DNA from: Pirellulales bacterium
GTDB lineage: Bacteria > Planctomycetota > Planctomycetia > Pirellulales > JAICIG01
DNA length: 64,000 nucleotides
Assembly (NCBI GenBank): GCA_025927475.1
Contig: JAICLL010000005.1
Coordinates: 21,219 to 85,218, forward strand
Direction of reading: 5' to 3'
The notes below the pieces were generated by a model that saw only the letters and a list, made by a program, of their open reading frames with translations, was not told where the DNA came from and ran no database searches. This document shows, one piece after another, positions 5,447 to 46,033 of the stretch; the first letter of the stretch is position 1, and every line of letters begins with the position of its first letter. Both the position numbers and the translations under genes were made by a program.

Positions 5447-5462
5447 CGCCAAGATCTCCGGG

Positions 5463-6900: not shown

Positions 6901-6914
6901 GACGATTGCGAGTT

Positions 6915-7179: not shown

Positions 7180-7363
7180 CCTCTCTCCGCATTGTCCCAC
7201 CAATCTGGCTTGGTGGGTTTTCCGGCTGAAAAAGGCACGATGGCACGCGTACCCATTGGCAAAATCAGACATGCCTGACTGTGCAACGTCCGCCGGGCGC
7301 CAAGGCCCTCTCTCCCCGCATTCTCTCAAGCAACTGGCTTGGTGGGTTTTCCGGCGGAAAAAC
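7180..7363. repeat. two copies of a ~56-bp direct repeat in a 600-bp spacer
   Basis: 7180-7235 and 7308-7363 share CCTCTCTCC(C)CGCATT..CTGGCTTGGTGGGTTTTCCGGC.GAAAAA. Copy 1 contains the hairpin CCCACCAA-N6-TTGGTGGG followed by TTTT. Confidence 0.7.
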
Positions 7364-7500
7364 GAGCTTTGCCAACCGCGGCGAGATGCGTAATGGGACA
7401 TGTCCCCATGTGCATAGCCCGGATGATTCGTCAGCCCGCACGAACATCCGGCATGGTCCAGCAAGAGACGGAATGGTAATGTATTCCGCTGTCCGGCGCA

Positions 7501-8757
7501 TCAGTCGTAAACCACATTCGCCGCGGGCACAGCGTCGCCCGGCTCAATCGGTGAAGGGGTTCTGCCGCGGGTGTTCTTCTCGGCGAACAGGACCGGCGCC
7601 CGAGGCGGCGCAGCGGTTGGATAGGCCACCTTTCGCCATGACCTCATCGCCCCTCCACGCAGCCAGACCCACGGTGCGATCAATGCTGCGCCGTTCAAAA
7701 TCACAAACGATGCTGCCGCCGACGTAAGTCGAAACCGACCGGGCAACGCCAACCCCACCAGGGCCGCCGCATAAAACGCGACCTCTCCCGCGAACAGTGC
7801 TCGATACAGCGGCAACCGCCACAGGCAGCCGCTGCTGATGAACATCACCAACAGCGCCCAGGGTACGACCAGCCGCAACAGCTTGTGCGAGATCACCGCC
7901 ACCCACAGGGGATTGCGCCGCGGGTCGAGCAGCTCGGGCAGGACCGACAAAAGTTGCAGGTTGCCGCTGAGCGTTCGCACCTTGCGGTGGAATTCATCGC
8001 GCGACCGCGGAGGCAGCCGATCGTAGGCTTTCGCGCGGCTGTCGAACACCACGCGGTAGCCTTGCATCGCTACTTGCAAGGGCCAATAGACGTCGTCGAG
8101 CACCAGCCCGCGCGGCATCGGGCGGAACAGCTCTTTCCGCACGGCCGAGATGGCGCCGGTCACGCCCGGCATGGCATGAACCCGACTTTCGCTGCGCCGC
8201 AGCCACTTTTCGTATCGCCAGTAAAGCCCGATGCCCGCAGCCTCGCCTGACGATCGCTCCAGCAGCAATTCGCCGCTGACCGCGCCCACCTCGGCGTCGG
8301 CGAAGTTTTCGATCAGCCGGTTCAAGGCGTCTGGTGACCATCGCTGCCGTGCGTCGGCAAAGACGACGATGTCGTGCCGCGCCATCTCGACGCCCAGATT
8401 CAAGGCGGCGGCTTTGCCCATCTTTTCGCCCAGGTCGAGCACGCGCACCGAAGCTGCCGTGCTGGCAGTGGCCGCGACGGCGGTAGTACGATCGGTCGAG
8501 CCATCGGAAACCACGATGACCTCGCCGTCAGCCCCGCCACGGGCGATCATCTCCGCCAGTTCGACCACGCGCCGTTCGATTTGGTGCTCTTCATTGTGGG
8601 CCGCCACAATGATGGAAACCGGCGCGCGATGCCCCTCGGCCGCGCGCGCCGGCCGCGCCCGCCACCGCGACCTGGCCGCCATCATCAGCGGATACAGCAG
8701 GTAGGTGTAGACGGCGGATACCGCGCCAATGCCAAAAATAATCTCAAACCACATCAT
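7501..8757 (-). CDS. family 2 glycosyltransferase with flanking TM segments
   Basis: VSIIVAAHNEE..VIVVSDGSTDRT GT-A signature, with an N-terminal TM and C-terminal multi-TM region. Confidence 0.88.
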   Translation of the reverse strand: MMWFEIIFGIGAVSAVYTYLLYPLMMAARSRWRARPARAAEGHRAPVSIIVAAHNEEHQIERRVVELAEMIARGGADGEVIVVSDGSTDRTTAVAATASTAASVRVLDLGEKMGKAAALNLGVEMARHDIVVFADARQRWSPDALNRLIENFADAEVGAVSGELLLERSSGEAAGIGLYWRYEKWLRRSESRVHAMPGVTGAISAVRKELFRPMPRGLVLDDVYWPLQVAMQGYRVVFDSRAKAYDRLPPRSRDEFHRKVRTLSGNLQLLSVLPELLDPRRNPLWVAVISHKLLRLVVPWALLVMFISSGCLWRLPLYRALFAGEVAFYAAALVGLALPGRFRLTSAAASFVILNGAALIAPWVWLRGGAMRSWRKVAYPTAAPPRAPVLFAEKNTRGRTPSPIEPGDAVPAANVVYD

Positions 8758-31900: not shown

Positions 31901-33379
31901 CTCGGCGGCGTTTTGATAGGCCGCCGCAGCGTGGTCCCACATCCGCAGTTGCGCGTAGCACTGACCGAGCTGCATCCAAACTCGATGGTTACCCGCCGCC
32001 CGGTTGGCGGTGATCGCTCCGCCCTGTCGCAATTCCAACACCCGCTTCAGCAGTGGCACGGCTTCGCCATACTGCGCGCGGCCGGTGGCGCTGTCTGCCC
32101 GCAGTGAGTACAGCGCGGCCAGCCACTGCGTTTGCTCCGCACCGAACAAATGCAGGATCTGCCGTTCCATCGGGTCGATCAGCGCTTGAGCCTCATCAAA
32201 CTGTCGCTCCCGCAGATAGGCCGATGCCAGTTGGGCTTGCAACCGCATGTCGTCGCCGCCGGTCGCCTTCAACCCCGACCGCCAGGCGTCCATGGCCTGA
32301 GGCAGGTCGTCCTCGGCCTCGTAGGTTTGCCCGAGCAGCGAATAGCCCTGCGGCTCGGCCGGCCTGAGGCGAATCAATCGCTGGAAGCAGTCGCGAGCGG
32401 TTTGCCATTGCTGCTGGTCTTGGGCGTGCAGACCCGCCGCCATCGCCAGCGAGGCGTTGGTGTGGTTTCGATCGGCGACCTCAGCCGAGCGCAAGTCGTC
32501 GTTGGCGCCGGGTAGATCGAACTCGTTTCGATACAGATAACGAGCCAGCAGCGCCTGCACGTTTGCCCGCCCGGCAGCCACCAGCCGGTCCATCACTTCG
32601 TCGGCCTGGAGAGCCCGCTTCTCGGGCGATGGCTGCCGCAACTCGGTGCGATAAAACCGAGCCAGGTGTGTGGCCACCTCCACGTCGGCCGGATCGGCCT
32701 CGTGGGCCGCGACCAATGCCCTGTGTACTTTTTCGTCGGAACTTTCGTTTTTGACATGATAGCGTGCGTGCAATGCCAATGCTTTTACGCGCAGGGCGTC
32801 CGTGTCCTGCGGCTGCTGGCCGAGCAGCTCATCGGCCCTTTGTAAGGCGGCTTCGTGGTCGCCCAGTTCGAGCAACAGCTTCAGGTGGCGGCGGCGCCAC
32901 TGCAGGTCGTTGGGCGCCAGCGAGATGGCGACCGCGTAAAGCTGCACCGCCCGCTGCTTATCGGCGCGCGTCGTGGCGGCTTTGCCAAAATCTTCGGCCA
33001 ACCGCAGCCGGGCTTCGGTATCATCGGGGCGTAGGCGAAGGAACTGGCGTAGCTCGTGGGCGGCTTGCTGCCAATCTTCGGCGCTCTCACGTTCGGCCGC
33101 TCGCTCGAGCAGGGCGTTGGCGTTGCGCTGCACCTGGTAGGCGTGCCAGAAATAGCCGGCCGGCGCCAAGATGACCACCAGCACGCCCGTGCGCACCAAC
33201 CGGCGCGTATTGACTTGCCAGCGCCGCCGCCGTTCGGCCACACGCCGTTTCGACTCGGTGTCACGCGCGCCGCCGACCGATGCGGTCGTGGAAGGCGAAG
33301 CGGGGTTATCGGTGGAAACCGGCATTTGTAGCAGTAATAGAACTCGTGAGAAGTCTGGCGGTAAGCGTGAGAACGGCAA
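28916..33379 (-). CDS. giant TPR-repeat protein (1487 aa) with N-terminal TM anchor
   Basis: Dozens of 34-aa A/L/Y-rich repeats (..AL..Y..A..L.P..) and one TM near residue 70 (VLVVILAPAGYFW). Functionally analogous to PrsT-type TPR proteins of PEP-CTERM loci, but much longer. Confidence 0.85.
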   Translation of the reverse strand: MPFSRLPPDFSRVLLLLQMPVSTDNPASPSTTASVGGARDTESKRRVAERRRRWQVNTRRLVRTGVLVVILAPAGYFWHAYQVQRNANALLERAAERESAEDWQQAAHELRQFLRLRPDDTEARLRLAEDFGKAATTRADKQRAVQLYAVAISLAPNDLQWRRRHLKLLLELGDHEAALQRADELLGQQPQDTDALRVKALALHARYHVKNESSDEKVHRALVAAHEADPADVEVATHLARFYRTELRQPSPEKRALQADEVMDRLVAAGRANVQALLARYLYRNEFDLPGANDDLRSAEVADRNHTNASLAMAAGLHAQDQQQWQTARDCFQRLIRLRPAEPQGYSLLGQTYEAEDDLPQAMDAWRSGLKATGGDDMRLQAQLASAYLRERQFDEAQALIDPMERQILHLFGAEQTQWLAALYSLRADSATGRAQYGEAVPLLKRVLELRQGGAITANRAAGNHRVWMQLGQCYAQLRMWDHAAAAYQNAAELQPREVAAHLAAAQAWEQAGWLDEALRHYEEALALDPQSTAGWESLVDARLRQQVMLPPAKRDWHVFQQSLAGASQRLPDSTLLKLLAAEYELVRGQTELAAQRFEALEPAVLEAPRLAGRLAFDYERSGSAAKADRLLDRLRAEQGQSLAVLLLEADLLYRRDREDEAAAALSRGLAGLSVPERRAVRYRLALLDLAAGKQAPARAELEKLVEEDPEDVLPLQMLVELDLDAGKVADARRRVDQLEASSRVDAQAGWRFYRAQCLLGEAAGLTDAAARRMRIDEARTLQRELEARRPYWPPSHLLKARVAQMQAKPDDETAIQAYGQALRLGERRVAVYQEMIGLLLRQNRLAEADAYLDRLRQAADVPPELAALAMATDLRQGNLVRAIEIARRETARAPDDALPHMRLGQLLSVDLPAEGPDREPRLVEAEAELRRAWELATSDPRTWSALLAFYHQTEQLEAGRGLLKQIDDRALLSDQDRPFFLAQGYALLGDADRARTLFLEAVERNPHRAAVLLQAAHFFFRTDPQRSEQYLRHVVELEPGGGAAERMLATLLALRAHAESELDEVWTLLDRSGGGAPEIADQRLKAILLLRRGGVSFRDRARQVLESLVSSANGAATIDRLLLARLYEAQGQWSKAREQLELLVQRDQPEPAHLAAFADHLLRSARKQPATLKKAAELIDRLAALEPENTHFRTLNLRVRLLAEQGETEQAPALVAAFLAGQPQQSPQQHAELLGRVARLYASIDLAQPAETAYRQALNLQPKAYVPLAIWLARHGRAHEGIELCLAADDTEARLAVALAAVITVGTVDEDDRRRAEPLITAALANHPDDRLLLFGTSAMYAMQGNTDEAIRLLRQMLALDPKNVASLNNMALLLSQRADSRREALEYIERALQIGGLQAELLDTKGWVLLQQHEADEAASLFKDALALSPTSARHRFHLALSLQYLGKTDDARQVFEEARQSNLAAELLPPAERQELLKLEANVR

Positions 33380-33382
33380 CGT

Positions 33383-35650
33383 CTAGAGGTCAATCACCGT
33401 GCCGTCCGGTGGCGGCAGCAAGGTCGGTGCGCTGGCGCCTGCATCGCCCGCCCCGGCTTGGGCATAGCGTTCCCATCCATAGCCGTAGCCGCCGTACTTG
33501 TAAGCCCAGGATCGCGCCGGCAGGCCGTTGATGACCGTGCCCAGCACCCGCGCGCCCGACGACATCAGCCGCTCGCAAGCCAAGCGGAATTGCGGGCCGC
33601 GGCTGACGTCGCGCATCGCGCACACCAGCGTGCCCTCGGCGGCCCCGGCCAGCACCAGCGCCTCGCTGGCCGCAAGCACAGGCGGCAAGTCGATGACGAT
33701 GTAGCGATAGTGCTGCCGCAGCTCGGCCAAGGCCGCTTGCATCGTGCCGTCCTGCAGCAGAGCATGCGGAGTGAACTTCAATTGCCCGCTCGGCAGAAAA
33801 TGCAACCAGGGACTGTCGGTGGCCACCACCGGATCGGCCACGGCGCAATGGCCTGCCAGCACATCGGTCAGGCCGGGCGAGATGTCGCGATCGAAAATCT
33901 CGTGCAGGCTGGGGCAGCGCATGTCGCCGTCGATGATCAAGGTCGGCTTGCGCGTGGCCTTTGCGAGGCTCGCCCCCAACGACGAGGCCAGGCTGCTCTT
34001 GCCCTCGCGGCTGATCGCACTGGTGATCGCCAAGGTTTGCAGATCGCGTGTTTCCGGCGACACGGTCAGCCCCACCCGCAAGGCCTCGATGCTCTCTTGA
34101 AACGTCAGTTGGTCGCGCATAAACCGCTCTTCGGAACGCTGGCCGGCCATCGCCGCCCGTGTCGGCAACGCCGTGATTTCGCCCAAGACAGGCAAATTAA
34201 CCTCTTGCACCATCTGCCGCACGTCATGAATCCGGCGTTGCCGTTGCTCCCAAAATACCGCCAGCGCGAACGGAAAAAATAAGCCCGCCACGGCCGCCGC
34301 TCCCAGCCGCTTCCAGGGAATCAACTCGCGCGGTTTGGTCGGCACCGTCGCGCGTTGCATGGGGCTGGCCCGCAGCGGCGCGCCCATTTCCGTCTGCAAC
34401 ATCACGATCCGGTCGGCGATTTTTTCGAAGACTTCCTGGGCGCGGGCCAGCTCGTCGCGGGCGAACTCAAGATCGACCGTTTTGTCGCCGAGCTTCTCGA
34501 TCCGCTCGCGCTGCGTCGCAACCCGGTCTTGCCACAGCTTCTGCATCAGCCGCTGGTTTTCGATATTGGCCTTCAGTTCCGCAATCGCCTCTTGCTGCCT
34601 GCCGCGCCGCGCCGACTGCAATTGCTCGACCAGTTGAGGCCGCAATTCGCCCGCCGTTTGCTTGATCGTCTCTTCCAAATCGTCGAGTTGCTGTTGCATG
34701 CGGACGGCCATCGAGTCGTTCTCGAGATTCGATCGCCGCCGATGATCGCGCAGCATGGCGGCCCGCATCCGCTGCTGGGCTTTCAGTCGCTGCATTTCCG
34801 GGTGAGACTCCAGGGCCGCCGTCAGCTCGCTTGGCGAAATTTCGAAGTCTTCGCTGTCCGCCGCTTCTTCGGCGACCTTCAGCCGCGCCTCGAGCACCGC
34901 GATCTCGACCTCGGCCGCGGTGCGGCGTTCTTCTAACCCCGACAGCGGATTGGCCGGCATGATGACCTGCTGGTCGTGGTGCATCAGGCTCGGGTCGTCT
35001 TCGGTGGCGTGCTTGGTGATGAGCCGCACCTTCTCCTGAAAGTGCCGAACTTCCTCGCCGCGATGCGATTTCTCCTCTTTGAGCAACTCGATGATCCGCT
35101 CCGCCTCTTTGCCGCGCATCGCCGTGTGCAGAGACAGGTAGGCGTCCATCACCGCGTTGGCCACGCTGGCCGCCGCTTGCGGATCTTGCGCCTTGAAGTT
35201 GATCTCGCAAAGCTCCGAACGACCGACATACGTGACTTTCAACCCCTGCTTGAGCCAATCCAGCGGCGCGTCGGAATGCTTGATTTCGGGCAGGCTGGCG
35301 ATTACCGGGTCGGCCACCACTTTCGAAAGGCAGATCGGGCTGCGAATGGTCTGGATTTGCGTCTCAGCGAAAACACTCGATTGATTTGCCGACTGAAACG
35401 CGACGACCGGCGCCTGATCCTTGATCTCGAGCCAGGCCGACGCTTCATAGCTCGGAACGAACAGCGCCAGCGAGGCCGCCGCGGCGATCGAACCCAGCAC
35501 TAAACCGCCCAGCGTGCATTGCCACCACCAGCGCCGATAGACGGCCCACAGATCGGCCAGGCCCATGCCCGACGCCGGCCGGTGCGGCTGCGAAGAGCCG
35601 CGCGATCCGGCGGCTGCCCCGTGCGACCCCAACGGTTCCTTGTTAGGCAT
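33383..35650 (-). CDS. polysaccharide co-polymerase / BY-tyrosine kinase fusion (Wzz domain + CpsD-like ATPase)
   Basis: Two TMs flank a long coiled-coil periplasmic region. Walker A-like ITSAISREGKSS, A' LIIDGDMR, Walker B YIVIDLPP, and a C-terminal Tyr cluster YKYGGYGYGWERY. Confidence 0.9.
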   Translation of the reverse strand: MPNKEPLGSHGAAAGSRGSSQPHRPASGMGLADLWAVYRRWWWQCTLGGLVLGSIAAAASLALFVPSYEASAWLEIKDQAPVVAFQSANQSSVFAETQIQTIRSPICLSKVVADPVIASLPEIKHSDAPLDWLKQGLKVTYVGRSELCEINFKAQDPQAAASVANAVMDAYLSLHTAMRGKEAERIIELLKEEKSHRGEEVRHFQEKVRLITKHATEDDPSLMHHDQQVIMPANPLSGLEERRTAAEVEIAVLEARLKVAEEAADSEDFEISPSELTAALESHPEMQRLKAQQRMRAAMLRDHRRRSNLENDSMAVRMQQQLDDLEETIKQTAGELRPQLVEQLQSARRGRQQEAIAELKANIENQRLMQKLWQDRVATQRERIEKLGDKTVDLEFARDELARAQEVFEKIADRIVMLQTEMGAPLRASPMQRATVPTKPRELIPWKRLGAAAVAGLFFPFALAVFWEQRQRRIHDVRQMVQEVNLPVLGEITALPTRAAMAGQRSEERFMRDQLTFQESIEALRVGLTVSPETRDLQTLAITSAISREGKSSLASSLGASLAKATRKPTLIIDGDMRCPSLHEIFDRDISPGLTDVLAGHCAVADPVVATDSPWLHFLPSGQLKFTPHALLQDGTMQAALAELRQHYRYIVIDLPPVLAASEALVLAGAAEGTLVCAMRDVSRGPQFRLACERLMSSGARVLGTVINGLPARSWAYKYGGYGYGWERYAQAGAGDAGASAPTLLPPPDGTVIDL

Positions 35651-36758
35651 TTCGTACTCCTTGATGAGAGGGGACGGGCGGCGCGATCACTTGGTGGGGC
35701 AAAAGGGCCTCGGAGGCCAGCAGCAGCCCGTCGGCGTACCAAAACACCAAATACATCAGCATCAAGGCCAACGGCAGCATGGCCCAGCCGGAAAAGTCGT
35801 GGGCAAACCGCTCGGCCAAGGTGTCGGGGCCGTGCAGCTTGAGCAGCCCGGTGACCGCGATGCGCAGCGCGTTGGCGACGACGGCCACCGGCAGTGCGCC
35901 GAGCAGTACGGCGCATCGACTCCACCATCGCCTCCAGTGCGCGCCGGCGGCGTCGTTCTCAGCGTCGGCTGACGATGCCGACGTCAACACACAAAACGCG
36001 TACGCGATGGCAAAGACCGAAATAAAGATGCGCAAGCCGCTACAGGCCTCGGCCACCAGCAGCCGCGTGTCGTGGATCATCACGACGTTGCCATCGGCGA
36101 TCGCCGGTTCACCCAGGCATTGGAGCAGCCAGCAGGTGAGTTGAGTGGCCACGCGCTGCAGCGGCAAGCTCAAGGCTCCCTCAATGCGGTAGGGCAGCGG
36201 GATCATGAAGGCCAGAAAGCCGATCGAGGGAAGTAACCATCGTAGCAAAGGCATTCCGCCCACCAGACAGGCCGTTCCGGCCGCCCAAAATGGCAGCGAC
36301 CAGCCGTCGAGCGCCCCGATAAACAGCAGGCTGTTCGCCGCGCGCAGCGCGGCAGAAAGTAGCAACAAGAGGAACCCCAGCGCGTTCCAGCGAAAAGCCA
36401 GCGGCGGACATACCGCGCGCCGGGCCCAGGCGAAATAGGCCGCGGCAGGGATGACCAAATAGCCGTGCGAGTAGTCAGGCTGAGAGCCCCAAATTCGCCA
36501 CAGTTTGACCAGCACCGGCCCATACGACCAAGCAAAGGCCGCCATGAGGGCTGCTCCGCCAACCAACAATTCGGGGCGTCGCCAGCCGGCCGGCCGTTGC
36601 CAGCCGGCACTCGGCCTTCGCGTAAAAGTGGCGGAGTTGGGCCCCAGGCCGCCGGGCATCGACGGTTTGGCCGGCTGCTTGGGCCCCTCGGAAATCAACG
36701 ACACCGACTGCGCCGCTGGGTGTCGCCGCTGTGAGGTTTTATTTCGCCCCCGTTTCAC
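35643..36758 (-). CDS. exosortase (EpsH/Xrt family transpeptidase)
   Basis: Motifs QPDYSHGYLV, VAEACSGLRIF (catalytic Cys) and VANALRIAVTG, with a multi-TM topology. Confidence 0.9.
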   Translation of the reverse strand: MKRGRNKTSQRRHPAAQSVSLISEGPKQPAKPSMPGGLGPNSATFTRRPSAGWQRPAGWRRPELLVGGAALMAAFAWSYGPVLVKLWRIWGSQPDYSHGYLVIPAAAYFAWARRAVCPPLAFRWNALGFLLLLLSAALRAANSLLFIGALDGWSLPFWAAGTACLVGGMPLLRWLLPSIGFLAFMIPLPYRIEGALSLPLQRVATQLTCWLLQCLGEPAIADGNVVMIHDTRLLVAEACSGLRIFISVFAIAYAFCVLTSASSADAENDAAGAHWRRWWSRCAVLLGALPVAVVANALRIAVTGLLKLHGPDTLAERFAHDFSGWAMLPLALMLMYLVFWYADGLLLASEALLPHQVIAPPVPSHQGVRNA

Positions 36759-37316: not shown

Positions 37317-40300
37317 ATGCACCCAAGACTTACTTCCCTGCCCGCTTCTTTTTTTTCTAGCCGTCGCCGAACGGCCTCGCGCCGCTCGATCAAGCGTTCC
37401 GGCTCGCTGAAAGCGCGGCGCAGCGCCCTGGCTGCCCGGTCCGTCGAGCTGCTCGAAAGCCGACGCGTGTTGGCCACGCTCTACGTCGCACCGTCGTTCA
37501 GCATCACCAGCGATGTTGCACCCGCGGGCCTCAGCAGCGGTGATACGGTTACCTGGGACGCGGGGAATCCCGACCAACAAGCCGGCCTGACCTATGGCAC
37601 GAACGCCTTCAACGACATCCAGACCGCCGTCAGCGCGGCCTCGTCGGGCGACACCATTCGCGTGGCAGCGGGGCTGTATCAACTCTCCGCCGCCGTGAAT
37701 GTCACCACGCCGTTGACAATTCTCGGCCCGCAGGCCGATGTCGATCCACGGCCCAGCGCTGGTTCGACGCGCGTCGAGGGCGGGCCGGACGAAGCGGTGC
37801 TCGATGGCGGCGGCACCGTGGCCGACACGTTTATGATCGCGGCCAACAACGTCACGATCAACGACTTCGACCTGCGCAACACGCTCGATGAGGTCATCGA
37901 CACCAATCCCGCGGCGGTCTACTCGAACGCGCAGGTTCTCGACAACTTTGTACATCACGCCCTTAATCCCTCCGGCGGCAAGGGCATTCGCTTTCAAGGA
38001 ATCACCGGCGGTGTCGTGAAAAACAACGACATTTACGACGTGCGCGACACCGGCGTCGAGATTGGCAGCGGCGCCGCTGGCAGCTCGCCCGGCGCTGTGG
38101 TCCGTGACAACGAAGTTCACGATCTGGGGTCCAACGGCACCTCGAATTCGGCGCTCTACGCGTACGCCGTTCCCTTCGCCACCGATCTCAACGTCACCTT
38201 TCAAGGCAACCTGATTTACAACTTTGGCGGCAACGACGCCATTAAGGTCGGTGCGAAGAATGGGGCGGATCGCGCTCTGACCGGCGGCTCGGTGCTCGAC
38301 AATGTGGTTCACGATGTCGTCGAAGACGGCATCACCATCGATGCCAGCAACACGCTGGTAAAGGGCAACGAAGTCTATAATTCGTCGAGCGATAACGCTG
38401 CCATTTACGTAGAGCATTCCAACGGCGGCGACACGATCGCGAACAATTACGTGCACAACAACACCGCCACGCTGGCGGCTATTCTGATCGGCGACCTCAC
38501 GACCGCGCCCACGGGCGTGGTGGTCACCGGCAACAGTATCACGAGCAACACGCACAACATGCTCGTGTTCCGCGACCTCAATTCGGGGAACACCGTCGAC
38601 GCCTCGGCCAACTGGTGGGGCTCGGCCGATTCCGCAGTGGTCGCCGCCTCGGTCATCTCGACCACGCCCGGCCAGATTGATTTCACGCCCTGGCTCAACA
38701 GTGGCGCCGACTCTTCGCCCACCACGCCGGGCTTTCAGCCCGATTTCTCGGCGCTGACGGTTGCCCCCGCTGCCATCAGCCCGCAGTTTGGCGCCACCGG
38801 GCGGATCAACGAAGGCATTCAAGACGTCGCCGCAGGCGGCACCGTGACCGTGCTCAACGGCGTCTACAACGAGGGCATCGATCTGAATACGAACGTGGTG
38901 GTCGCGGTAAGCGGCACTGTGAGCGGGCCGATCAGCGGAGTCCAAGGCACCCTTGCGGCCACGGGGCCGCTGACCCTCGGCGACGGAACGGCTGGCGCGA
39001 TCAACACCGCGAGCGCGCTAAACGTCGGGGCACAAACCGTCACCTTATCGACCTCCGACGCGGCGGTGCTGGGTGGAGTTGCCTTGGCGGGTGGCACGCT
39101 TACCGCACCCAATGGCATCAACCTGGTGCCTACGCCGGTCGTCATGCCCATTTTGAGCTCCACTCTGGCCGTGGCAAACACCGGTACTCTTTCCGGCGCG
39201 GGAGTTGTCAACGCCGCCGTGAATGCGACGGGCACAGGTGCTGGCATCGCGCCCAGCGACAGCGCGGGAACCTTGACGGTTACCTCGGCAACGTTGGACG
39301 GCAGCGGCACCTTCAACGTCGGTATCAGCGGCACAACGCCGGGAACCGGTTACAGCCAACTCGTCGCCAGCAACGGTGTGAACCTCAACGGGGCGGCGTT
39401 GACGGGCACCGATGCTTTCACACCCACCGCGGGGCAGACCTTCGAGATCATTAACAACACCAGCGCGAACCCGATTTCCGGCACGTTCGCGGGCCTGCCC
39501 GAAGGCGCTCACGTCGCCTTGGGCAACGCCCAGTTCACCATCAGCTACGCGGGCGGCGACGGCAACGACGTAGTGCTGACCGCGGTGAACGCCACGCCGG
39601 CCTTGACCAGCGTCAGCCCCTCGCGATTGGTCGAAGGAAGCCCAGATACCACGATCACGGTCAACGGCACGGGCTTTGTCAACGGCTCGACCGTGCAGTT
39701 CAACGGCCAGCCGCTGACCACCACGTTTGTAAGCGGCATCCAGCTCACCGCCGTCGTGCCCGCCGCCGCCATCAGTGAAGAGGGCACTGGCTCGATCACC
39801 GTGGTCACACCCGGCCCGGGCGGCGGAACCTCGCAGGCCTCCAGTCTGCCGATCGACGACGCGCCGCTCACCGCGACCGGCACCACGTTAAGCGTCCCAG
39901 AGGCAACCGTTCTAACACCCGCCGTGGTGGCGACGTTCACCGATGCCGATCCCAACGGCACCGTGAGCGACTATACCGCGACGATCGACTGGGGCGATGG
40001 TTCAAGCACCACAGGAGCTGTCACCGCGGGACCGCCGCCGGCAGCGTCACCCATCTCAGGGGCGCCCGCCGGCGCGTTCTATGTTTCCGGCTCGCACGCT
40101 TACGCTGAGGACGGCGCCTACACCATCACGGCCAAGATTGCCGACGCTGGCGGAGCGACCGCCACGGCCACCAGCAGCGTCACCGTCACTGAGCCGGCGC
40201 TGACGGGCGCCGCCGTCTCAATCACCGGCCAGGAGCGCGTGGCGCTCGGCACAGTAACGGGATCGGCAAACCCAGCCGCGCCCCAGGCGATCGTGGCCAC

Positions 40301-41201
40301 ATTCACGCACGGCTCGAACCTGGAAGCCACCACGGGCTTCAGCGCCCAGATTGCCTGGGGCGATGGCACGTTCTCGCCCGGCACCGTGGTCGCCGCCTCA
40401 CCGGCGGGCACGGGATACCAAGTGCTCGGCGCCCATACCTATCTCGACGAAGGTACCTTCACGGTAACCGTCACCATCACCGACGAGTCGGCTGTGCCCG
40501 CCAGCGGAGCGGCCACCGTCCACTCGACCGCCAAGATTGCGGAAGAGCCGCTGCCCGGTGGCATTCAGGGCACGGCCACGCAGCGATGGATCAGCGAAGT
40601 CTACCGCGACTTGCTGGGCCGGGGGGTGGATCCCGGCGCGTTGGCCTATTGGACCCAGCAGGCCGCGGCGGGAGAAAAGCCATCGCAAATCGTCCTGCAG
40701 ATCGAGCAAGCCGGGCCCGACCACGAGTATTATCACACCCAGGTCGAAGCGCTCTATGCCAAATACCTGCACCGCGCGGCCGATCCGCAGGGGCTCGATA
40801 ATTTCGTCTCGGCGCTAGCCGGCGGCGCAACGCTCGATCAGGTGGCGGCCACGATCGTCGCCTCGCCGGAATACTACGCCAGCCAGGGGGGTGGCACGAA
40901 CAGTGGCTTTGTCACCGCGATGTTCCGCGACGTGCTGGGACGGCCGATTGCTTCGCAGGATCTGAATTACTTCCAGCAGCAGCTCGCGCACGAGGGCCGC
41001 GTGGCGGTCGCCGACCAGGTGTTCGGCAGTGCCGAGTATCGCCACGTGCTGGTGACCGAAGATTTTGAGCTTTTATTGGACCGCCCCGCCGAAGCCCCGG
41101 CCCAGTCGTTCTACGCCGCGCAATTGGCTCACGGCACGAGCAACGACGCCGTGTTCGCCGCCATTGCGGCCACCGACGAGTACTTTGCGAAGACAGCGTA
41201 G
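37317..41201 (+). CDS. giant secreted multidomain protein: right-handed beta-helix region, autotransporter-type beta-strand repeats, IPT/TIG-like domain, WGDG-type beta-sandwich repeats, C-terminal DUF4214-like repeats
   Basis: N-terminus ..RSVELLESRRVLATLYV (a planctomycete-style secretion leader). Repeated GN.I.N / DN.VHD turns. ..FTISYAGGDGNDVVLT. PALTSVSPSRL..ITVNGTGF. IDWGDG / IAWGDG modules. Three Y..LLGR..D..G..YW repeats. Confidence 0.85.
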   Translation: MHPRLTSLPASFFSSRRRTASRRSIKRSGSLKARRSALAARSVELLESRRVLATLYVAPSFSITSDVAPAGLSSGDTVTWDAGNPDQQAGLTYGTNAFNDIQTAVSAASSGDTIRVAAGLYQLSAAVNVTTPLTILGPQADVDPRPSAGSTRVEGGPDEAVLDGGGTVADTFMIAANNVTINDFDLRNTLDEVIDTNPAAVYSNAQVLDNFVHHALNPSGGKGIRFQGITGGVVKNNDIYDVRDTGVEIGSGAAGSSPGAVVRDNEVHDLGSNGTSNSALYAYAVPFATDLNVTFQGNLIYNFGGNDAIKVGAKNGADRALTGGSVLDNVVHDVVEDGITIDASNTLVKGNEVYNSSSDNAAIYVEHSNGGDTIANNYVHNNTATLAAILIGDLTTAPTGVVVTGNSITSNTHNMLVFRDLNSGNTVDASANWWGSADSAVVAASVISTTPGQIDFTPWLNSGADSSPTTPGFQPDFSALTVAPAAISPQFGATGRINEGIQDVAAGGTVTVLNGVYNEGIDLNTNVVVAVSGTVSGPISGVQGTLAATGPLTLGDGTAGAINTASALNVGAQTVTLSTSDAAVLGGVALAGGTLTAPNGINLVPTPVVMPILSSTLAVANTGTLSGAGVVNAAVNATGTGAGIAPSDSAGTLTVTSATLDGSGTFNVGISGTTPGTGYSQLVASNGVNLNGAALTGTDAFTPTAGQTFEIINNTSANPISGTFAGLPEGAHVALGNAQFTISYAGGDGNDVVLTAVNATPALTSVSPSRLVEGSPDTTITVNGTGFVNGSTVQFNGQPLTTTFVSGIQLTAVVPAAAISEEGTGSITVVTPGPGGGTSQASSLPIDDAPLTATGTTLSVPEATVLTPAVVATFTDADPNGTVSDYTATIDWGDGSSTTGAVTAGPPPAASPISGAPAGAFYVSGSHAYAEDGAYTITAKIADAGGATATATSSVTVTEPALTGAAVSITGQERVALGTVTGSANPAAPQAIVATFTHGSNLEATTGFSAQIAWGDGTFSPGTVVAASPAGTGYQVLGAHTYLDEGTFTVTVTITDESAVPASGAATVHSTAKIAEEPLPGGIQGTATQRWISEVYRDLLGRGVDPGALAYWTQQAAAGEKPSQIVLQIEQAGPDHEYYHTQVEALYAKYLHRAADPQGLDNFVSALAGGATLDQVAATIVASPEYYASQGGGTNSGFVTAMFRDVLGRPIASQDLNYFQQQLAHEGRVAVADQVFGSAEYRHVLVTEDFELLLDRPAEAPAQSFYAAQLAHGTSNDAVFAAIAATDEYFAKTA

Positions 41202-41342: not shown

Positions 41343-41816
41343 GTGACTCCTGAACCAAGGAAAGCCGAAACGGGCGAGACGCCGGACATCAAAAACATGA
41401 CCGATGCCGGCAGCCGCGGGCAGCAGGGCGGAGCGGCGTGGCAGACGCCCGAAACCTCCGCCGGCCCGGCGCCGCGCCCTTCGCGCGAGCAACTCAACGA
41501 GCGCATCATGCAACACTGCGTCGACGCCTGCGGCGAGACCATCGCCCACTGCCTGGCGAATCTTGAGCAAGGCGACGAATCGTACGCCGCACTATTGCAC
41601 GCGGCGGTCGAGTGTCAGGACTCGTTTTGCGCCCACTGGTCTGAACTGACCGGTCCCGGCGGCGCGTGGCACGCCAAGGCGGTAGAAGCCTGCGCCTCCG
41701 CCTGCGAGTCGCTGGCCACAGCGTGCCAGCCGTTCCTGCCGCAAGACGCTCAAGCGCAGCAATGTGCCGAAGCCTGCCATGCGACGAGCGAGCGGTTGCG
41801 CCATGCGGGACTGTAA
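41343..41816 (+). CDS. Cys-rich four-helix-bundle protein (DUF326-like, possible metal binding)
   Basis: Repeated C-x2-AC-x6-C patterns (CVDACGETIAHC, EACASACESLATAC, CAEACHATS). The start could be GTG 41343 or ATG 41397. Confidence 0.5.
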   Translation: MTPEPRKAETGETPDIKNMTDAGSRGQQGGAAWQTPETSAGPAPRPSREQLNERIMQHCVDACGETIAHCLANLEQGDESYAALLHAAVECQDSFCAHWSELTGPGGAWHAKAVEACASACESLATACQPFLPQDAQAQQCAEACHATSERLRHAGL

Positions 41817-41883: not shown

Positions 41884-42741
41884 TCAGATCAGCGAATCTG
41901 AAACGGTCACAAATCGTTCCACAACCGCTGGCTCGACGTACGACGCTGCTCGCTTTTTGCGGCGGGCGTAGGTGACTCCCGCCAGGCCCATCAGGCTCCA
42001 GAGGGTCAGCGAGGTTGGCTCAGGCACGGGGCTGGGGCCAGGCATTGGAGTGCCAGTGATCAATGATGTATCGCTGCCACCGGTTCCAAAAACAAACGTC
42101 ACCTTGTTGCCAAGGTCGCTCAACGAGAACGACTTGGCAATGAGCGAAAACGTAATGCTGTTCTGAGCAAGGATCGTGAAACCATTGGCTAAATCGGAAC
42201 CGTAGCTATCGGCAGCAATGCCGAAGTTCGGACCATCGAGAGGAGTTTTAGGCACCGTGGCAAAGTAGCCCGAGCGCGGGTTACCGTCGTCATCGACCCC
42301 CGTCGACGAAATGACAGTGTTCTGCGGCGCGCCAGAACTTGTTCCCTCGATCGCCCAGTTGGCACCGATGGAGGTAATTCCAGACGGATACGAGCCGAGA
42401 ATCGCCGATGCCGTTGCTGCGGATCCGCTGGCGTCGATGTCCGGGGTAAGGCTGCTCCCAAGGTTCGTATCAAACATCAGCTCGGTCACTATCTGTCCAC
42501 CGCCAGTGGTCGATGCACCGCCTGTTGGGGTAGACGTGTTCGTCACCTTGATGGTTAGAAGATCGCCGGCCAGGGTAAAAACTGCGCTGGCAGACTTGTC
42601 ACCGGAAGGTGTGGCGAAGGTTACAAAGTCCGCGCGTGCCGCGGGGCAGAACACCGCGAACAATGCCACCGCAACTGTCGCCACAATCGCCGCGGGGGCG
42701 TGGATTTTCTGGAATTGCCGTCTCAACGCGATTGATGACAT
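41884..42741 (-). CDS. PEP-CTERM sorting-domain secreted protein 2 (exosortase substrate)
   Basis: C-terminus VPEPTSLTLWSLMGLAGVTYARRKKR and an N-terminal signal peptide. The ATG at 42741 is preceded by AGGAGG. Confidence 0.9.
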   Translation of the reverse strand: MSSIALRRQFQKIHAPAAIVATVAVALFAVFCPAARADFVTFATPSGDKSASAVFTLAGDLLTIKVTNTSTPTGGASTTGGGQIVTELMFDTNLGSSLTPDIDASGSAATASAILGSYPSGITSIGANWAIEGTSSGAPQNTVISSTGVDDDGNPRSGYFATVPKTPLDGPNFGIAADSYGSDLANGFTILAQNSITFSLIAKSFSLSDLGNKVTFVFGTGGSDTSLITGTPMPGPSPVPEPTSLTLWSLMGLAGVTYARRKKRAASYVEPAVVERFVTVSDSLI

Positions 42742-42826
42742 CGAGTCATCCTCCTAGTCTAAAATAAAAAGGGAAAGCTGAACTCACAGGCCGCACGTCG
42801 AAGCGACATGCGCGCAGGAACACAGT

Positions 42827-43270
42827 TCAACTTTCGCCGCGAGGAGGATGAAAGACCGAATCCAGCGCGTCGCGCAGAACGCGCGGCTCGTCAAGCTCGG
42901 TCAGGCAGCGCCATTGGCCGCCCACCCGAGCAGCATCGTCGATCGGCGGAAGCGCGGCCGAAGATCCCTGAGGCGAGAGCGACGTCGAGGTGCCCGATTG
43001 GGGACCGCTCGACTGCTCCGCACCGGAACCATAGAGGAGGTGCTCTGCCAAGAGAGACAAGCGGCCCTCGGACGACGGAGCGCCGCCATTGGACTGCTCG
43101 GCTGCGGACAGCTCAACGGACGTCACCAGATCGGCGGCGTCGATTCTGACGATCACGCCCGCTTGCGCGGCTGACCCGAAGCCAGCCAGTAGCGCCAAAG
43201 CGATTGCCGCGGCCGCGCAGAATGGGCCGCAGGGGCGTAACTTCGCCAAGATGGTCTTTGGCGCGGGCAT
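42827..43270 (-). CDS. small secreted Ser/Gly-rich protein, family member C (tail SVFHPPRGES)
   Basis: Signal peptide AAAAIALALLAGFGSAAQAG, an SSGPQSGTSTSLSPQGSS core, a single late Cys and a C-terminal LDSVFHPPR. It lies directly upstream of PEP-CTERM gene 2. ATG 43270 is preferred over TTG 43333. Confidence 0.6.
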   Translation of the reverse strand: MPAPKTILAKLRPCGPFCAAAAIALALLAGFGSAAQAGVIVRIDAADLVTSVELSAAEQSNGGAPSSEGRLSLLAEHLLYGSGAEQSSGPQSGTSTSLSPQGSSAALPPIDDAARVGGQWRCLTELDEPRVLRDALDSVFHPPRGES

Positions 43271-43339
43271 GGATGAGGTAGCGGCAGTGCGGTTTTCATT
43301 GGCGCCCCCAACGACGTTTCCACCCCTATTCAACGAGTG

Positions 43340-43376
43340 ATCTTACCTGGGTTTCCCGGCTTGTCAAGCAAATTCT
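43340..43376 (-). promoter_or_regulatory. candidate promoter with palindromic -35 context upstream of family member C
   Basis: On the minus strand, GAATTTGCTTGACAAGCC, with TTGACA at 43367-43362, a 16-nt spacer and TAAGAT at 43345-43340. A near-identical GAATTCGCTTGACAAGCG occurs at 2770-2753. Confidence 0.45.
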
Positions 43377-43434: not shown

Positions 43435-44811
43435 TCACCCGGGACGGTCTTGGAAGGCCATCCTCCGATGGTTGCCAGCCAGCGAAACGCCGGACAGGGC
43501 GCCGATCGCATAAAGCAGCACGTCGGAAAAGCTCGGCGTGGAATCGGCGAGCCAGATTTGGCCGAACTCAATCGTCAGGGCGAAAGCGGCCATCACGACC
43601 AACAGCGCAGCCAGCAGCCTGCGATACCCGGCTTTCGACGCTGTCCATGAACTCGCAATTTGCGGCAGCATGGCGCCCAGCAGCCCGAACATCGCTCCCT
43701 TGCGCATCACTTGGGTGGCGGCATTCAACTCAGTGCCGCAAAACAAGTTGCTGAATGGAACTTCAAAAAAGTTCTGCCGCCGCGCTTCGATCAACCCGGC
43801 ACCCGAAATCCAATGAAACGGCGACCAGAAAAACCACAGCAGAAACGCGCCATACACCATCGCGGCCGCCGGCCAGATCCAACGTGCGGCGGCGGACTGG
43901 GGCCGGTCGGCGAGTTTTTGTACCGGGCACCGATTCAGCCAGTGCCGGGCCGCCAAGACCCCCGCGGCAACGCCCGCCGCCGCAAGTATCAACTGCGTGA
44001 CGTCGGTGTATCGACTCATGACCAAGAGCTGGCCTGCTTCGATACCACAGGCGTTCAGCATTCCCCAGGCGATGCTGCGCCACACGCCCCGCAACGGCTG
44101 GCGGCGGCTTGTACCCAACGTCGCAGCCGCCGCCCCAATAGGTATATAGAGAAGAACATCGCTGGCCAGGTCGTACCAGCCCATCGCGTCGAGGCGCACG
44201 TGTGCGAAGGGTACAAGACAGATTTTGCCTTCGCGATATTTCTGCCAGACCTCCGCCGGGCGAATCGTCAGATCGAACGGCAGCAGCGAATAAATGACGA
44301 AGCCGAGCAGATATACATGCAAGAACCGATCAAAGCGGCCGCTGGATCGGTCGGATGATTTGAACGAACGGACCCAGGTGGTGAGGGCTTGGCCGCGCGC
44401 CAGCCAAAGAATGGTTCCCAGCGCCGCGCCCAGACATTGGGCGGCGATGTCGTTGGGCGAAGGCACGCGCGGCGGAAACCAGGTCTGGGCGAATTCAATC
44501 GCGACGCTAAACCAACCGCAAGCGAGCATGACCAGCGGTGCGCCGGCCGCGGCGCGCCGCCAGCCCGGTCGGTCGCACGCGGCAGCGCCTAGCCAGCAAA
44601 ACCCGATCGGCACGAACAACAGCACGTTCGTGGCCCAATCCGTGCGCGATTCAAAGCTAAGCCGCCACAGCAGTTCTTGGAATCGCTCGACGGCGCCGGC
44701 CAGCGGCAGCGGATGCCAGGCCAGCGGCACCAACGAGCCGTAAACCGCGAGCGCCGTGAAGCCGGCGGCCAGCAACAGGTAGGGCTTTTTATACAAGGCG
44801 AAGTGCTCCAC
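43435..44811 (-). CDS. VanZ-like family membrane protein (tandem VanZ-like modules)
   Basis: Multi-TM. VYGSLVPL..TDWATNVLLFVPIGF and later ..DVLLYIPIGAAA / ..SDVLLYAIGALSG are VanZ-like motifs. GTG 44811 is proposed because longer starts overlap the upstream gene. Confidence 0.65.
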   Translation of the reverse strand: MEHFALYKKPYLLLAAGFTALAVYGSLVPLAWHPLPLAGAVERFQELLWRLSFESRTDWATNVLLFVPIGFCWLGAAACDRPGWRRAAAGAPLVMLACGWFSVAIEFAQTWFPPRVPSPNDIAAQCLGAALGTILWLARGQALTTWVRSFKSSDRSSGRFDRFLHVYLLGFVIYSLLPFDLTIRPAEVWQKYREGKICLVPFAHVRLDAMGWYDLASDVLLYIPIGAAAATLGTSRRQPLRGVWRSIAWGMLNACGIEAGQLLVMSRYTDVTQLILAAAGVAAGVLAARHWLNRCPVQKLADRPQSAAARWIWPAAAMVYGAFLLWFFWSPFHWISGAGLIEARRQNFFEVPFSNLFCGTELNAATQVMRKGAMFGLLGAMLPQIASSWTASKAGYRRLLAALLVVMAAFALTIEFGQIWLADSTPSFSDVLLYAIGALSGVSLAGNHRRMAFQDRPG

Positions 44812-44896
44812 CGCGGATTCGGTGGCTGTCGGCCGCGATAGACGCCGGCGCTTGGCGCCACGGCATCCGTCGCGCCGAAAACCTGCCCTACGAGCA

Positions 44897-46033
44897 TTAC
44901 GGAATGCCGCGGACGATTGGCGGGCCGATGAGGCGGGTGAGCCAGACGGGCAGGCGCTGCCAAACGCGCACGCGGCGGGCATAACGCGCGTTGTCGGGAC
45001 GCATGTCGCCGCCGCCGCCGCCGCGCCGCACATAGTATTGCCAGACCGCCGGGCTCGGCTCGGCCCCCCATTGCCGCTTGAAGCGAAACGTGCCGCTGTC
45101 GATCGTGCTGCGGCCGAAGTCGAAAACCTGCTGCCCGCGTTCGATTGTCCCGACCAGCAGTTGCCAGTACATCAGCATGTTGGCATTGGCCGAGTTGTAT
45201 TCGCGCAGCGAGCTGGCGCTGGGCACCTCGGTGCTGCGGTCGCCATGCACCAGCAGCGCGGCGGCGATGGGCCGCGGTCCATCGGAAACCACACACAGTT
45301 CGGCCCGCTCGGACAATTGCTGAAGGATTGCTTGGAACAAGCGGCGGCCATAGACGGGCGTGCCCAGATCACGCATGTTGCGGCTGAAGACGGCGTAAAA
45401 ATCATCGAGCCGGTCGACGCCGCCCCAGGCGACGCGGAACCCCGGCTCTTGGCCCTTGCGCACCTGGTTACGCACCTTGGCCTTGAGCTGATGCCACAGT
45501 GCGTCGGCCGAGTCGGGCAGCGGCAGGCGCATGTGGACCTTCGAGGTCAGTTCGCTGGTCAAGGCCGGATGCTCGATGCGCACTTCGTGCCGCAGTTCGA
45601 GATAGCGAACGTCGAGCTCATCGGCCAGTTGCACGGCACGGTCGACCAGCGATGTTGCCACCGTGGCGTCATCGGCCAACACCCCGGCAGAATTGAGATA
45701 CGGCAGGCTGACCAGAAACCTGCCAAAAAGCCGGCTGCTTACGAGTGCCAGCGGCAGGCACCCCGCAAGCTGGCCGCCTTGATGGGCCATGAGCCAATAC
45801 GGCCAGTGGCCGAGGCCGTCGCGCAAGATGGCTGGCCAGGCGGGAAGATGGTGAGGGCAAACCGCCGCCCCCGTCGGCGCCAGCAGCGGCCGGATTTGCT
45901 CGATCGTGGGCGCGCCATCACTGACCGTGATTTGCGGCGGGGTCGGGTTGGCACTAAGCGCGTTCGTACCCACACCCGGCGTGGCGGTAGGGCGGGACGA
46001 GCTGGCGAGTCCCAACATCGGCATCAACCGCAC
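44897..46033 (-). CDS. FemAB-like (GNAT-fold) protein of the PEP-CTERM/exosortase-associated type
   Basis: HLPAWPAILRDGLGH..LPLALVSSRLFGRFLVSLPYLNSAG..KVRNQVRKG..FRFKRQWGAEP resembles the FemAB-related family described as PEP-CTERM-system associated (recalled, not searched). Confidence 0.7.
   Translation of the reverse strand: MRLMPMLGLASSSRPTATPGVGTNALSANPTPPQITVSDGAPTIEQIRPLLAPTGAAVCPHHLPAWPAILRDGLGHWPYWLMAHQGGQLAGCLPLALVSSRLFGRFLVSLPYLNSAGVLADDATVATSLVDRAVQLADELDVRYLELRHEVRIEHPALTSELTSKVHMRLPLPDSADALWHQLKAKVRNQVRKGQEPGFRVAWGGVDRLDDFYAVFSRNMRDLGTPVYGRRLFQAILQQLSERAELCVVSDGPRPIAAALLVHGDRSTEVPSASSLREYNSANANMLMYWQLLVGTIERGQQVFDFGRSTIDSGTFRFKRQWGAEPSPAVWQYYVRRGGGGGDMRPDNARYARRVRVWQRLPVWLTRLIGPPIVRGIP

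Follow-up and report, generated by a model that had tools for sequence, protein, structure and literature searches.

The present analysis concerns a 64,000-nucleotide (nt) stretch of DNA from a Pirellulales bacterium (contig JAICLL010000005.1, assembly GCA_025927475.1), hereafter referred to as the window, and more particularly a small gene, designated small open reading frame (ORF) C, which lies directly upstream of PEP2, a gene encoding a surface protein with a PEP-CTERM sorting signal of the type recognized by exosortases. A preliminary description made from the letters alone had reported that small ORF C is followed after 85 nt by PEP2, and both ORFs and the spacer (42742..42826) exist exactly as described. 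The window has a GC content of ca. 62%. The elements of this gene pair, from promoter to sorting signal, are as follows:

43340..43367, minus strand: sigma-70-like promoter of small ORF C (TTGACA, 16 nt, TAAGAT), ca. 70 nt 5' of the ATG, from a consensus scan
42827..43270, minus strand: small ORF C, 147 amino acids (aa), LRPP-tail family (FHPPR variant), proposed to act as an exported leader or monitor peptide
43160..43270, minus strand: Sec-type signal peptide or signal anchor of C (aa 1-37, ...SAAQA/GVIV), read from the sequence and from the helix predicted by AlphaFold2 (AF2)
42839..42937, minus strand: C-terminal conserved block of C (aa 112-144, DAARxGGQWRCxTELDEPRVLRDALDSVFHPPR), largely conserved in a seven-sequence alignment
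42842..42851, minus strand: candidate anti-Shine-Dalgarno (anti-SD) sequence of the C type, UCAUCCUCCU, in the F-H-P-P codons, the first Pro codon being the rare CCT
42773..42835, minus strand: predicted stem-loop of the spacer (GAAAGUUGAAC...GUUCAGCUUUC), beginning two codons ahead of the small-ORF stop and followed in the window by CCCUUUUUAUUUU
42746..42755, minus strand: Shine-Dalgarno (SD) region of PEP2, AGGAGGAUGA, the partner of the anti-SD
41884..42741, minus strand: PEP-CTERM protein 2 (PEP2), 285 aa, an XDD4-family exosortase-dependent surface protein whose signal peptide ends ...AARA/DF
41956..42030, minus strand: PEP-CTERM sorting signal of PEP2, PVPEPTSLTLWSLMGLAGVTYARRK, scoring 18.8 bits with Pfam PF07589, just below the gathering score of 20.7

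Small ORF C is considered a real gene on the basis of its same-length homologues, its codon-position pattern and its synteny in three related loci (L001, L003, and L004). Six homologues were identified (48-58% identity, 140-148 aa), and the seven-sequence alignment is most conserved at the N-terminus (AQAGVIV) and over the last ca. 36 residues. Within the C-terminal block, which stops three codons ahead of the stop codon, substitutions are distributed over codon positions 1:2:3 as 29:18:52, a pattern indicating purifying selection on the protein. This block is a putative pause or arrest motif. The AF2 model of small C, computed from an 18-sequence alignment, has a mean predicted local distance difference test (pLDDT) score of 56; the N-terminal helix (residues 16-36) is alone predicted with confidence, and most of residues 58-124 fall below 50. 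Low confidence outside this helix suggests that small C is intrinsically disordered, and the model offered no fold worth a structure search. No Pfam or NCBIfam match was obtained for small ORF C.

A tail of the same family is borne by two other ORFs of the window, A and B, and by no further one. These ORFs and the cargo gene of the first pair are located as follows:

6915..6943, minus strand: promoter-like element of small B (TTGACA, 17 nt, TAAAGT), kept in L005, L006, and the distant L022
6445..6900, minus strand: small ORF B, 151 aa, same family, tail ...LPTPPTFDFLRPPCRLA
5463..6377, minus strand: PEP-CTERM protein 1 (PEP1), with an ectodomain unrelated to XDD4; Met8 at 6356 is the probable true start
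2273..2731, minus strand: small ORF A, 152 aa, same family, tail ...LRLPPSPFFDHLRPPQA, an orphan in the window

Database searches revealed seven homologues of B and two of A. That the small proteins resemble each other, as initially proposed, could not be seen by plain BLASTP for B versus C (E = 1.6, not significant) but was supported by profile-profile comparisons, in which A was linked with both C (93% probability, E = 2.5e-7) and B (92%, E = 5e-7), the probability for C versus B being 12%. The kinship of B and C therefore rests on profile comparisons via A and on a family profile search. In this search, a profile of all 18 sequences compared with 1.84 billion representatives retrieved 84 clusters, all composed of small proteins of 114-283 aa with alignments reaching the C-terminus; the longest members (up to 283 aa) probably have over-called starts. 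Clusters with a taxon label belong to Pirellulales or Planctomycetota, members with a name are called "hypothetical protein", clusters are labelled hypothetical or unnamed, and none of the 86 members matched any NCBIfam or Pfam family. Judging from these sequences, C, B, and A appear to belong to one undescribed planctomycete family of exported, disordered mini-proteins. We found no earlier account, in Pfam, NCBIfam or the searchable literature, of small genes acting as partners or leaders of PEP-CTERM genes, and a metagenome search for related loci with the A8 subgroup found none.

The overall design of these proteins is shared across the family. A basic n-region is followed by a hydrophobic helix of ca. 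20 aa, an A-x-A motif (logo pattern in 82/86 members), a residue that is G in 55%, A in 24% and S in 21%, and three hydrophobic residues, so that the small proteins are predicted to carry an N-terminal secretion signal or transmembrane (TM) segment. The middle region is of low complexity, acidic and Ser-rich, with poly-Ser runs of up to 10, and a spacer of ca. 95-110 aa, more than the 30 aa used as a threshold in a published screen discussed below, separates the localization signal from the conserved C-terminal block. The latter comprises ca. 22 aa, close to the length of the ribosomal exit tunnel, with the consensus [LV]-G-R-L-x-E-E-R-x-L-x-L-P-x-P-P-x-F-D-L-L-R-P-P-R; short forms read LxLPxPPxxDLLRPPR, with SVFHPPR as the C-type variant. 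In the C-terminal logo, which was anchored on the PP present in all 86 members, the preceding residue is R, H, K or Q (81/8/5/3%, respectively), and conservation drops after PP[R/Q], only 2-4 variable residues remaining to the C-terminus in 77/86.

The small gene was found directly 5' of a same-strand PEP-CTERM gene in every locus in which the next gene could be determined, with gaps mostly of 57-91 nt. These loci are B and C of the window, L001, L003, L004, L005 (twice), L006, L009-L012, L015-L019, and L022, the distant members (L009, L010, L011, L012, L015, L016, L017, L018, L019, and L022) having been reached via pattern scans and exact look-ups; L013, L014, L021, and L023 run off contig ends, making their next gene indeterminable. 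The pairing spans family members of just 20-40% mutual identity, and small-gene copies occur as one per cargo gene, with three in the 64-kb window. Its exceptions are A of the window, whose cargo gene is deleted, and L025, in which the next gene encodes a 66-aa protein with a PEP-CTERM-like tail. The A orthologue in L005 precedes a gene of a third PEP-CTERM type, which weakly matches the Pfam thioester domain and also gives a weak PepA-like match. The corresponding 1.07-kb cargo segment (L005 6488..7561) is missing from the window, where its counterpart is ca. 100 nt at 2140..2239, and its absence leaves A an orphan there.

The 66-aa product of L025 (10663..10863), also found in L026, consists of a signal peptide and a PEP-CTERM-like tail with PEI for PEP (VPEIGF...VVLRKTKGR). 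Its gene is flanked by an A-like small gene and a gene for a thioester-domain-like adhesin, and a Rce1/CPBP-family intramembrane protease gene and a VanZ gene occur upstream in the same locus.

PEP2 matches the NCBIfam family NF045504 (XDD4) with 69.3 bits (cut-off 40, E = 4e-19), the alignment covering protein residues 30-223 and profile positions 3-201 of 202, and its tail VPEPTSLTLWSLMGLAGVTYARRKKR is present, with VPEP, a TM segment and RRKKR. Orthologues were identified in L001, L003, L004, and L019. Past the basic cluster of its sorting signal, PEP2 has ca. 20 additional residues (ASYVEPAVVERFVTVSDSLI, window 41884..41946); the orthologues in L001, L003, and L019 stop right at this cluster, and that of L004 has a short extension. 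AF2 modelling of PEP2 from the single sequence was uninformative (pLDDT 34). PEP1 probably starts at Met8 (6356), 7 codons past the ATG at 6377, since its orthologues begin MRFV... and an SD, GAAGGAG, precedes 6356. Neither PEP1 nor its orthologue matches NF045504.

The two PEP-CTERM proteins had been described as not obviously similar, and alignments agree: BLASTP matches only the sorting tail and hhalign, run between groups, only the signal peptide, pointing to ectodomains without detectable kinship. At the profile level, the cargos are not clear paralogs and the small proteins are linked. When cargos were compared after removal of signal peptides and sorting tails, they grouped only within a subtype, namely XDD4 for the C type, the PEP1 type for the B type (37-39% identity in L022), and a weak match for the A type. 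The eight cargos of the G type, defined by the small-protein motif PPGTDLLRPP, are mutually unrelated. L017 and L018 illustrate this situation, with 57% identity between the small proteins over 134 aa and no similarity between the cargos. The view that the small protein, not the cargo, is the conserved element of the pair is thus borne out, and the recurrence of the small gene with unrelated cargo ectodomains in all checkable loci argues, as the preliminary description did, for a functional coupling in which the small gene is the constant element, rather than for a simple segmental duplication. Among close relatives, subtypes keep their own cargo (C, XDD4; B, the PEP1 type; A, thioester-domain-like), and these modules appear from sequence comparison to be inherited as units. 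A-type cargos (L005 6604..7560, L013, and L025) share the thioester-domain-like motifs F/Y-C-x-x-L-x-Q-D and Q-x-A-I/M-W-x-L-E-Y-D.

Conserved promoter elements are found 5' of the small genes. The -35 box of the C promoter and its -10 box (TAAGAT/TAATAT) are kept in L001-L004, and a conserved CTTGACA occurs upstream of small A. In C-type spacers, only ca. 20-25 nt, bearing a strong SD, are left between the hairpin and the cargo start, which leaves little room for a separate cargo promoter. Small gene and cargo gene are presumably co-transcribed. Spacer hairpins starting at or over the stop codon are frequent; the stem arms of the C spacer are kept in L001, L003, and L004, and its U-tract occurs in the window only. 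The start of the hairpin relative to the PP codons was discarded as evidence, being non-discriminating in GC-rich RNA.

The end of the small ORF is complementary to the SD of the downstream gene. In the C pair, UCAUCCUCCU (42851..42842) is a perfect 10-nt complement of AGGAGGAUGA (42755..42746), and in the RNAalifold consensus of six C-type sequences the H-P-P codons are joined to the cargo SD by a predicted long-range helix. The minimum free energy fold of 42732..42862 (-50.8 kcal/mol, z = -5.4, 0/200 shuffles as good) is closed by this helix, which encloses the stop-codon hairpin. The F-H-P-P 12-mer is the best SD partner (rank 1 of ca. 430 each) in 5/6 loci, that is in the window, L001, L003, L004, and L019. 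Furthermore, the first Pro codon is CCT in 6/6 C-type loci, and CCT represents 10.7% of the Pro codons in window genes; conservation of this rare codon suggests selection at the RNA level. The equivalent elements of the B pair are as follows:

6475..6482, minus strand: candidate anti-SD of the B type, CCUUCGAU, in the T-F-D codons
6366..6373, minus strand: its partner AUCGAAGG, just 5' of PEP1 Met8

With a start at 6356, the spacer between small B and PEP1 is 88 nt. The 154-nt B-type fold includes the anti-SD:SD helix (z = -2.8), and all 8 pairs of this helix are kept in 4/4 sequences, L022 having two compensatory double changes and one change from G-C to G-U. Across the 19 small-to-cargo pairs, which are phylogenetically non-independent, the best SD-complementary 12-mer lies within the last 66 nt of the small ORF in 13, versus ca. 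15% by chance and 3 of 18 other adjacent same-strand gene pairs of the window taken as a control. For the C and B types, an SD-masking mRNA structure overlapping the putative stall site is thus predicted, with enrichment over control pairs, and the sequence evidence points to a coupling in cis at the level of RNA and translation, through anti-SD:SD pairing, and not necessarily to a protein-protein partnership. Most window genes lack a recognizable SD, and the PEP-CTERM genes have strong ones (AGGAGG, GAAGGAG).

Based on gene order, promoters, motifs, predicted disorder, and complementarity with its conservation and covariation, we lean towards regarding small C as an exported leader peptide that acts in cis, its translation, probably with pausing, unmasking the SD of the cargo gene in a manner reminiscent of SecM and CutF. 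The pair would form a two-gene unit consisting of a promoter, the small ORF as first cistron, a structured spacer, and the PEP-CTERM gene. As long as the small ORF is not translated, the PEP2 SD would be masked. A ribosome reaching the H-P-P-R codons, and probably pausing there, would cover or adjoin the anti-SD, freeing the SD so that the PEP-CTERM protein can be made. With the ribosome at the pause site, the N-terminal export signal would engage Sec or the signal recognition particle, and export of the nascent chain, or a ligand of the exported acidic, Ser-rich part, would determine how long the pause lasts and hence how much cargo is made. Co-transcription, export, pausing, and the sensed signal are the steps of this scheme that we infer. 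One copy per cargo gene, strict adjacency in cis and the exchange of cargos fit a leader acting in cis better than a factor acting in trans. Extended to the family as a whole, these ORFs might represent a new multi-copy class of exported regulatory nascent peptides, in which each PEP-CTERM gene has its own secretion- or envelope-sensing arrest peptide, which would pause on [R/H]PP and expose the cargo SD; this broader proposal is put forward only tentatively.

Several observations weigh against small C and its relatives acting as leaders in cis. The orphan ORF A is still intact without its cargo gene, and L011 contains a PEP-CTERM gene (2177..3427) without such a leader. The anti-SD pairing is clear in the C and B types and weak or absent in several G-type and A-type pairs, and Pro and Leu codons are inherently CU-rich, hence anti-SD-like, which inflates such matches. 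The x-R-P-P-R sequence is not among the RAPP-like motifs shown to arrest ribosomes, and a plain XPP pause could be relieved by elongation factor P. Finally, G-type members share a further conserved motif in the mature N-terminus, and B-type orthologues are conserved over ca. 60 aa, exceeding the capacity of the exit tunnel, two features hinting at a function at the protein level.

Such a function would be expected if the small protein acted in trans, as a secreted or membrane-anchored, disordered adaptor escorting the cargo, with the C-terminal LPxPP...LRPPR docking on the exosortase, the PrsT-like tetratricopeptide repeat (TPR) protein or the export channel and the variable part handling the cargo. 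The C-terminal motif is conserved as protein in all subtypes, subtype-specific regions are co-inherited with cargo families (C with XDD4, B with the PEP1 type, and A with the thioester-domain-like type), conservation among B orthologues extends past the tunnel length, and possible docking partners are encoded at the locus, including the giant PrsT-like TPR protein, the exosortase and the FemAB-family XrtA-associated protein. However, a generic factor would need one copy per genome and not one per cargo gene, the similar small proteins of L017 and L018 are associated with unrelated cargos, and the small protein has no folded domain. Residues after PPR vary in number and identity, which speaks against a carboxy-terminal docking peptide, and an adaptor would leave the anti-SD:SD complementarity and its covariation unexplained. 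An adaptor role, the chief alternative to a leader in cis, appears rather unlikely; the two are mutually compatible.

The spacer hairpins raise the question of transcription attenuation, in which the stop-codon hairpin would be an intrinsic terminator and read-through would require either the neighbouring specialized NusG paralogue (UpxY/RfaH-like) or a ribosome that, by stalling at the PP codons, keeps the hairpin from forming. A stable hairpin followed by a T-rich tail, better than all shuffles, occurs in 6/17 spacers (window C and B, L003, L021, L022, and L023), and NusG/UpxY-like genes (best NCBIfam match UpxY, below cut-off) adjoin the pairs in window modules A and B, L005, L006, L009, and L010; a literature search found no paper connecting PEP-CTERM with NusG paralogues. 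Such an arrangement is nevertheless not universal, as about half of the spacers have no terminator-like element; the C-type U-tract is absent from L001, L003, and L004, no NusG-like gene adjoins the C pair, and the consensus scan called no terminator in its spacer. Attenuation is considered improbable as the main explanation and may operate alongside SD masking as an added layer. A covalent partnership was also envisaged, in which the exposed N-terminal Gly, Ala or Ser of the small protein would be the acceptor nucleophile for exosortase cleavage, by analogy with the Gly-bridge acceptors of sortases. This would be in line with the residues found after A-x-A, with the strict gene pairing and with the FemAB-family XrtA-associated gene of the locus, but G, A and S are also the usual +1 residues at signal-peptidase sites, the C-terminal motif and the RNA pairing would be left unexplained, and there is no other pointer in this direction, making such a role very improbable. 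As for a plain two-gene segmental duplication, or a chance ORF in GC-rich DNA, functionally unlinked to its neighbour, tblastn without composition correction does align PEP1 and PEP2 over their full length (26% identity, E = 8e-5), yet this similarity vanishes with composition correction and at the profile level, and the match was rejected as compositional after hhalign. Moreover, the small ORF is conserved as a protein and its pairing recurs with unrelated cargos in many genomes, so that duplication or chance can hardly be credited.

The closest parallel to a leader in cis is provided by the CutF-cutO system of Rhodobacter capsulatus, in which CutF, a small Sec-exported protein with a Pro-rich C-terminus, is undetectable in vivo and acts in cis only, its co-translational export governing a stem-loop that shields the cutO SD (PMC9973294). 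Both systems involve a small (<170 aa), predicted Sec-exported protein without a Pfam domain, whose gene lies directly 5' of that of an exported cargo, a Pro-rich motif at the C-terminus that resembles stalling motifs and has basic residues on either side, and a stem-loop masking the downstream SD. In contrast to CutF, alignments of the present family reveal no conserved CxxxC copper-binding motif, neither DUF2946 nor another Pfam family is matched (0/86 members), the target is not a metal-homeostasis gene but one for a PEP-CTERM surface protein, the phylum is Planctomycetota, and the motif is LxLPxPPxxDLLRPPR. CutF is a direct precedent for a target outside the Sec machinery.

The family can also be compared with the substrates that monitor Sec or YidC, such as SecM, VemP, MifM, ApcA/ApdA/ApdP, the RQH family and uA_LPPP (PMC10987492, PMC7897499, PMC10951233). 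Fujiwara et al. screened upstream ORFs of no known function for a signal sequence or TM segment followed, after >30 aa, by a conserved C-terminus, and obtained many arrest peptides, among them an LPPP class (uA_LPPP) located upstream of secA in Planctomycetota (PMC10987492). Apart from what the next gene encodes, the sequence features of the present family agree with those used in this screen (PMC10987492), the small ORFs being adjacent to the next gene on the same strand with gaps of 57-91 nt, having a conserved promoter only 5' of the small ORF and matching no curated family. Common features with monitoring substrates include an N-terminal signal or TM segment, a spacer of >30 aa, a di-proline motif near the stop, a co-located mRNA structure involving the downstream SD, and the alternation of R, H, and Q before the prolines. 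Yet the downstream gene encodes a PEP-CTERM cargo and is not secA, secDF or yidC, and the consensus L-[R/H]-P-P-[R/Q] has no A/G between R/H and PP, unlike RAPP-like motifs (R/Q/H-A/G-P-P, RAGP, RAPG). The family further differs in having several copies per genome, one per cargo gene. In TnaC-tnaAB and other leader-peptide attenuators, an upstream ORF likewise has a Pro-containing C-terminus near its stop, and TnaC stalls the ribosome and controls downstream genes; however, TnaC is a cytoplasmic, tryptophan-sensing peptide of 24 aa acting on Rho termination, whereas the proteins described here have ca. 150 aa, a predicted export signal and a predicted SD mask.

The locus itself resembles the XrtA-type PEP-CTERM exopolysaccharide (EPS) system in its PEP-CTERM tails, exosortase, PrsT-like TPR protein, FemAB-family protein, tyrosine kinase/chain-length determinant, and priming glycosyltransferase (PMC1569441). 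According to Haft et al. (PMC1569441), most proteobacterial PEP-CTERM genes are single-gene operons, preceded by a long stretch of non-coding DNA and a motif of the sigma-54 type; in the present loci, the non-coding leader is replaced by a coding leader ORF, whose promoter is sigma-70-like. Overall, the family resembles SecM, VemP, ApdP, and CutF in its predicted working but belongs to none of these systems.

To our knowledge, the expression of PEP-CTERM proteins and their hand-over to the exosortase are largely unknown, and we know of no data for Planctomycetota. The family reported here, unannotated so far (84 clusters), marks PEP-CTERM cargo genes, and its profile and C-terminal logo can be used for better annotation of Pirellulales genomes. 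It also offers a concrete, testable regulatory mechanism, in which an SD is masked by the pause-site codons of the leader itself. If stalling proves true, the known exported arrest or monitor peptides (SecM, VemP, MifM, ApdP, and CutF) would be joined by a group with a new motif, from a new phylum and with target genes of a new class, and a handle would become available on the envelope signal that governs how these bacteria produce surface adhesins. Arrest-peptide control would be connected with an exosortase sorting system for the first time, and such monitors would for the first time be seen to gate cargo genes, not translocon components or metal-homeostasis genes.

The surrounding genes of the window include the following:

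28916..33379: PrsT-like giant TPR protein, hit under the equivalog cut-off
33383..35650: tyrosine kinase/chain-length determinant, hits (tyrosine-kinase, EpsB_2-like) under equivalog cut-offs
35643..36758: exosortase gene of the EPS/exosortase locus
37317..41201: giant adhesin-like gene, divergent from the exosortase gene
41343..41816, plus strand: Csp1-like gene, between PEP2 and the giant adhesin-like gene
44897..46033: FemAB-family XrtA-associated protein (TIGR03019, 366.6 versus a cut-off of 260)

The exosortase scored 185 bits with PF09721 and 137.7 with TIGR02602 (cut-off 105.6), and 138.7 with the XrtA-specific model, below its cut-off of 208. Other genes encode a priming glycosyl-phosphotransferase, a Wzm/Wzt-like ATP-binding cassette exporter, a carbamoyltransferase, a VanZ-like protein, and many glycosyltransferases. 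From these matches, the window appears to carry the exosortase and associated marker set typical of an XrtA/PEP-CTERM EPS locus. The sequencing reads containing the locus come from soil metagenomes, and named homologues from Pirellulales or Planctomycetota metagenome-assembled genomes; a search for RNA-seq runs containing the locus gave none. Gene order is shared among the C-type loci L001, L003, and L004 (VanZ, small gene, XDD4-type PEP-CTERM gene, Csp1-like gene, and giant adhesin gene) and between the B-type loci L005 and L006 (family 2 glycosyltransferase (GT2), small gene, PEP1-type gene, and NusG-like gene).

The C pair had been placed next to a giant adhesin-like gene divergent from the exosortase gene; this divergent gene is present, but the Csp1-like gene intervenes after PEP2. 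The Csp1-like protein is Cys-rich and resembles the four-helix-bundle copper-storage family, with a TIGR04401 match below cut-off. Its gene is convergent to PEP2, a position kept in L001 and probably in L004, where an unannotated gene encoding 163 aa is convergent.

A paralogous module occurs twice in the window (891..2731 and 4080..6900). Each copy consists of a small gene of the LRPP-tail family, which may or may not be accompanied by a PEP-CTERM gene, together with a gene for a conserved hypothetical protein (ca. 130-170 aa) and a specialized NusG paralogue. The two hypothetical proteins are 30% identical and have no family match; a "PilZ-like" label for the genes at 1664..2050 and 4080..4583 was dropped, as neither Pfam nor NCBIfam supports it. 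The two NusG paralogues are 58% identical and, among NCBIfam models, match the UpxY antiterminator family best, with scores below cut-off. A stretch of ca. 550 nt separating the GT2 gene from small B in the window (6951..7500) is lacking in L005, in which only 17 nt lie between the two genes. This segment contains two imperfect copies of ca. 60 nt, around 7370..7300 and 7235..7170 (...CCGGAAAACCCACCAAGCCAG...GCGGAGAGAG...), which went unreported in a repeat search of 6880..7520 that found no repeats of at least 20 nt at the thresholds used. An Rfam scan of the window gave no match. Lastly, the VanZ-like ORF (43435..45033, 532 aa) overlaps the FemAB-family gene (44897..46033) by 137 nt, and its orthologues have 420-444 aa, so that the true VanZ start is probably internal.

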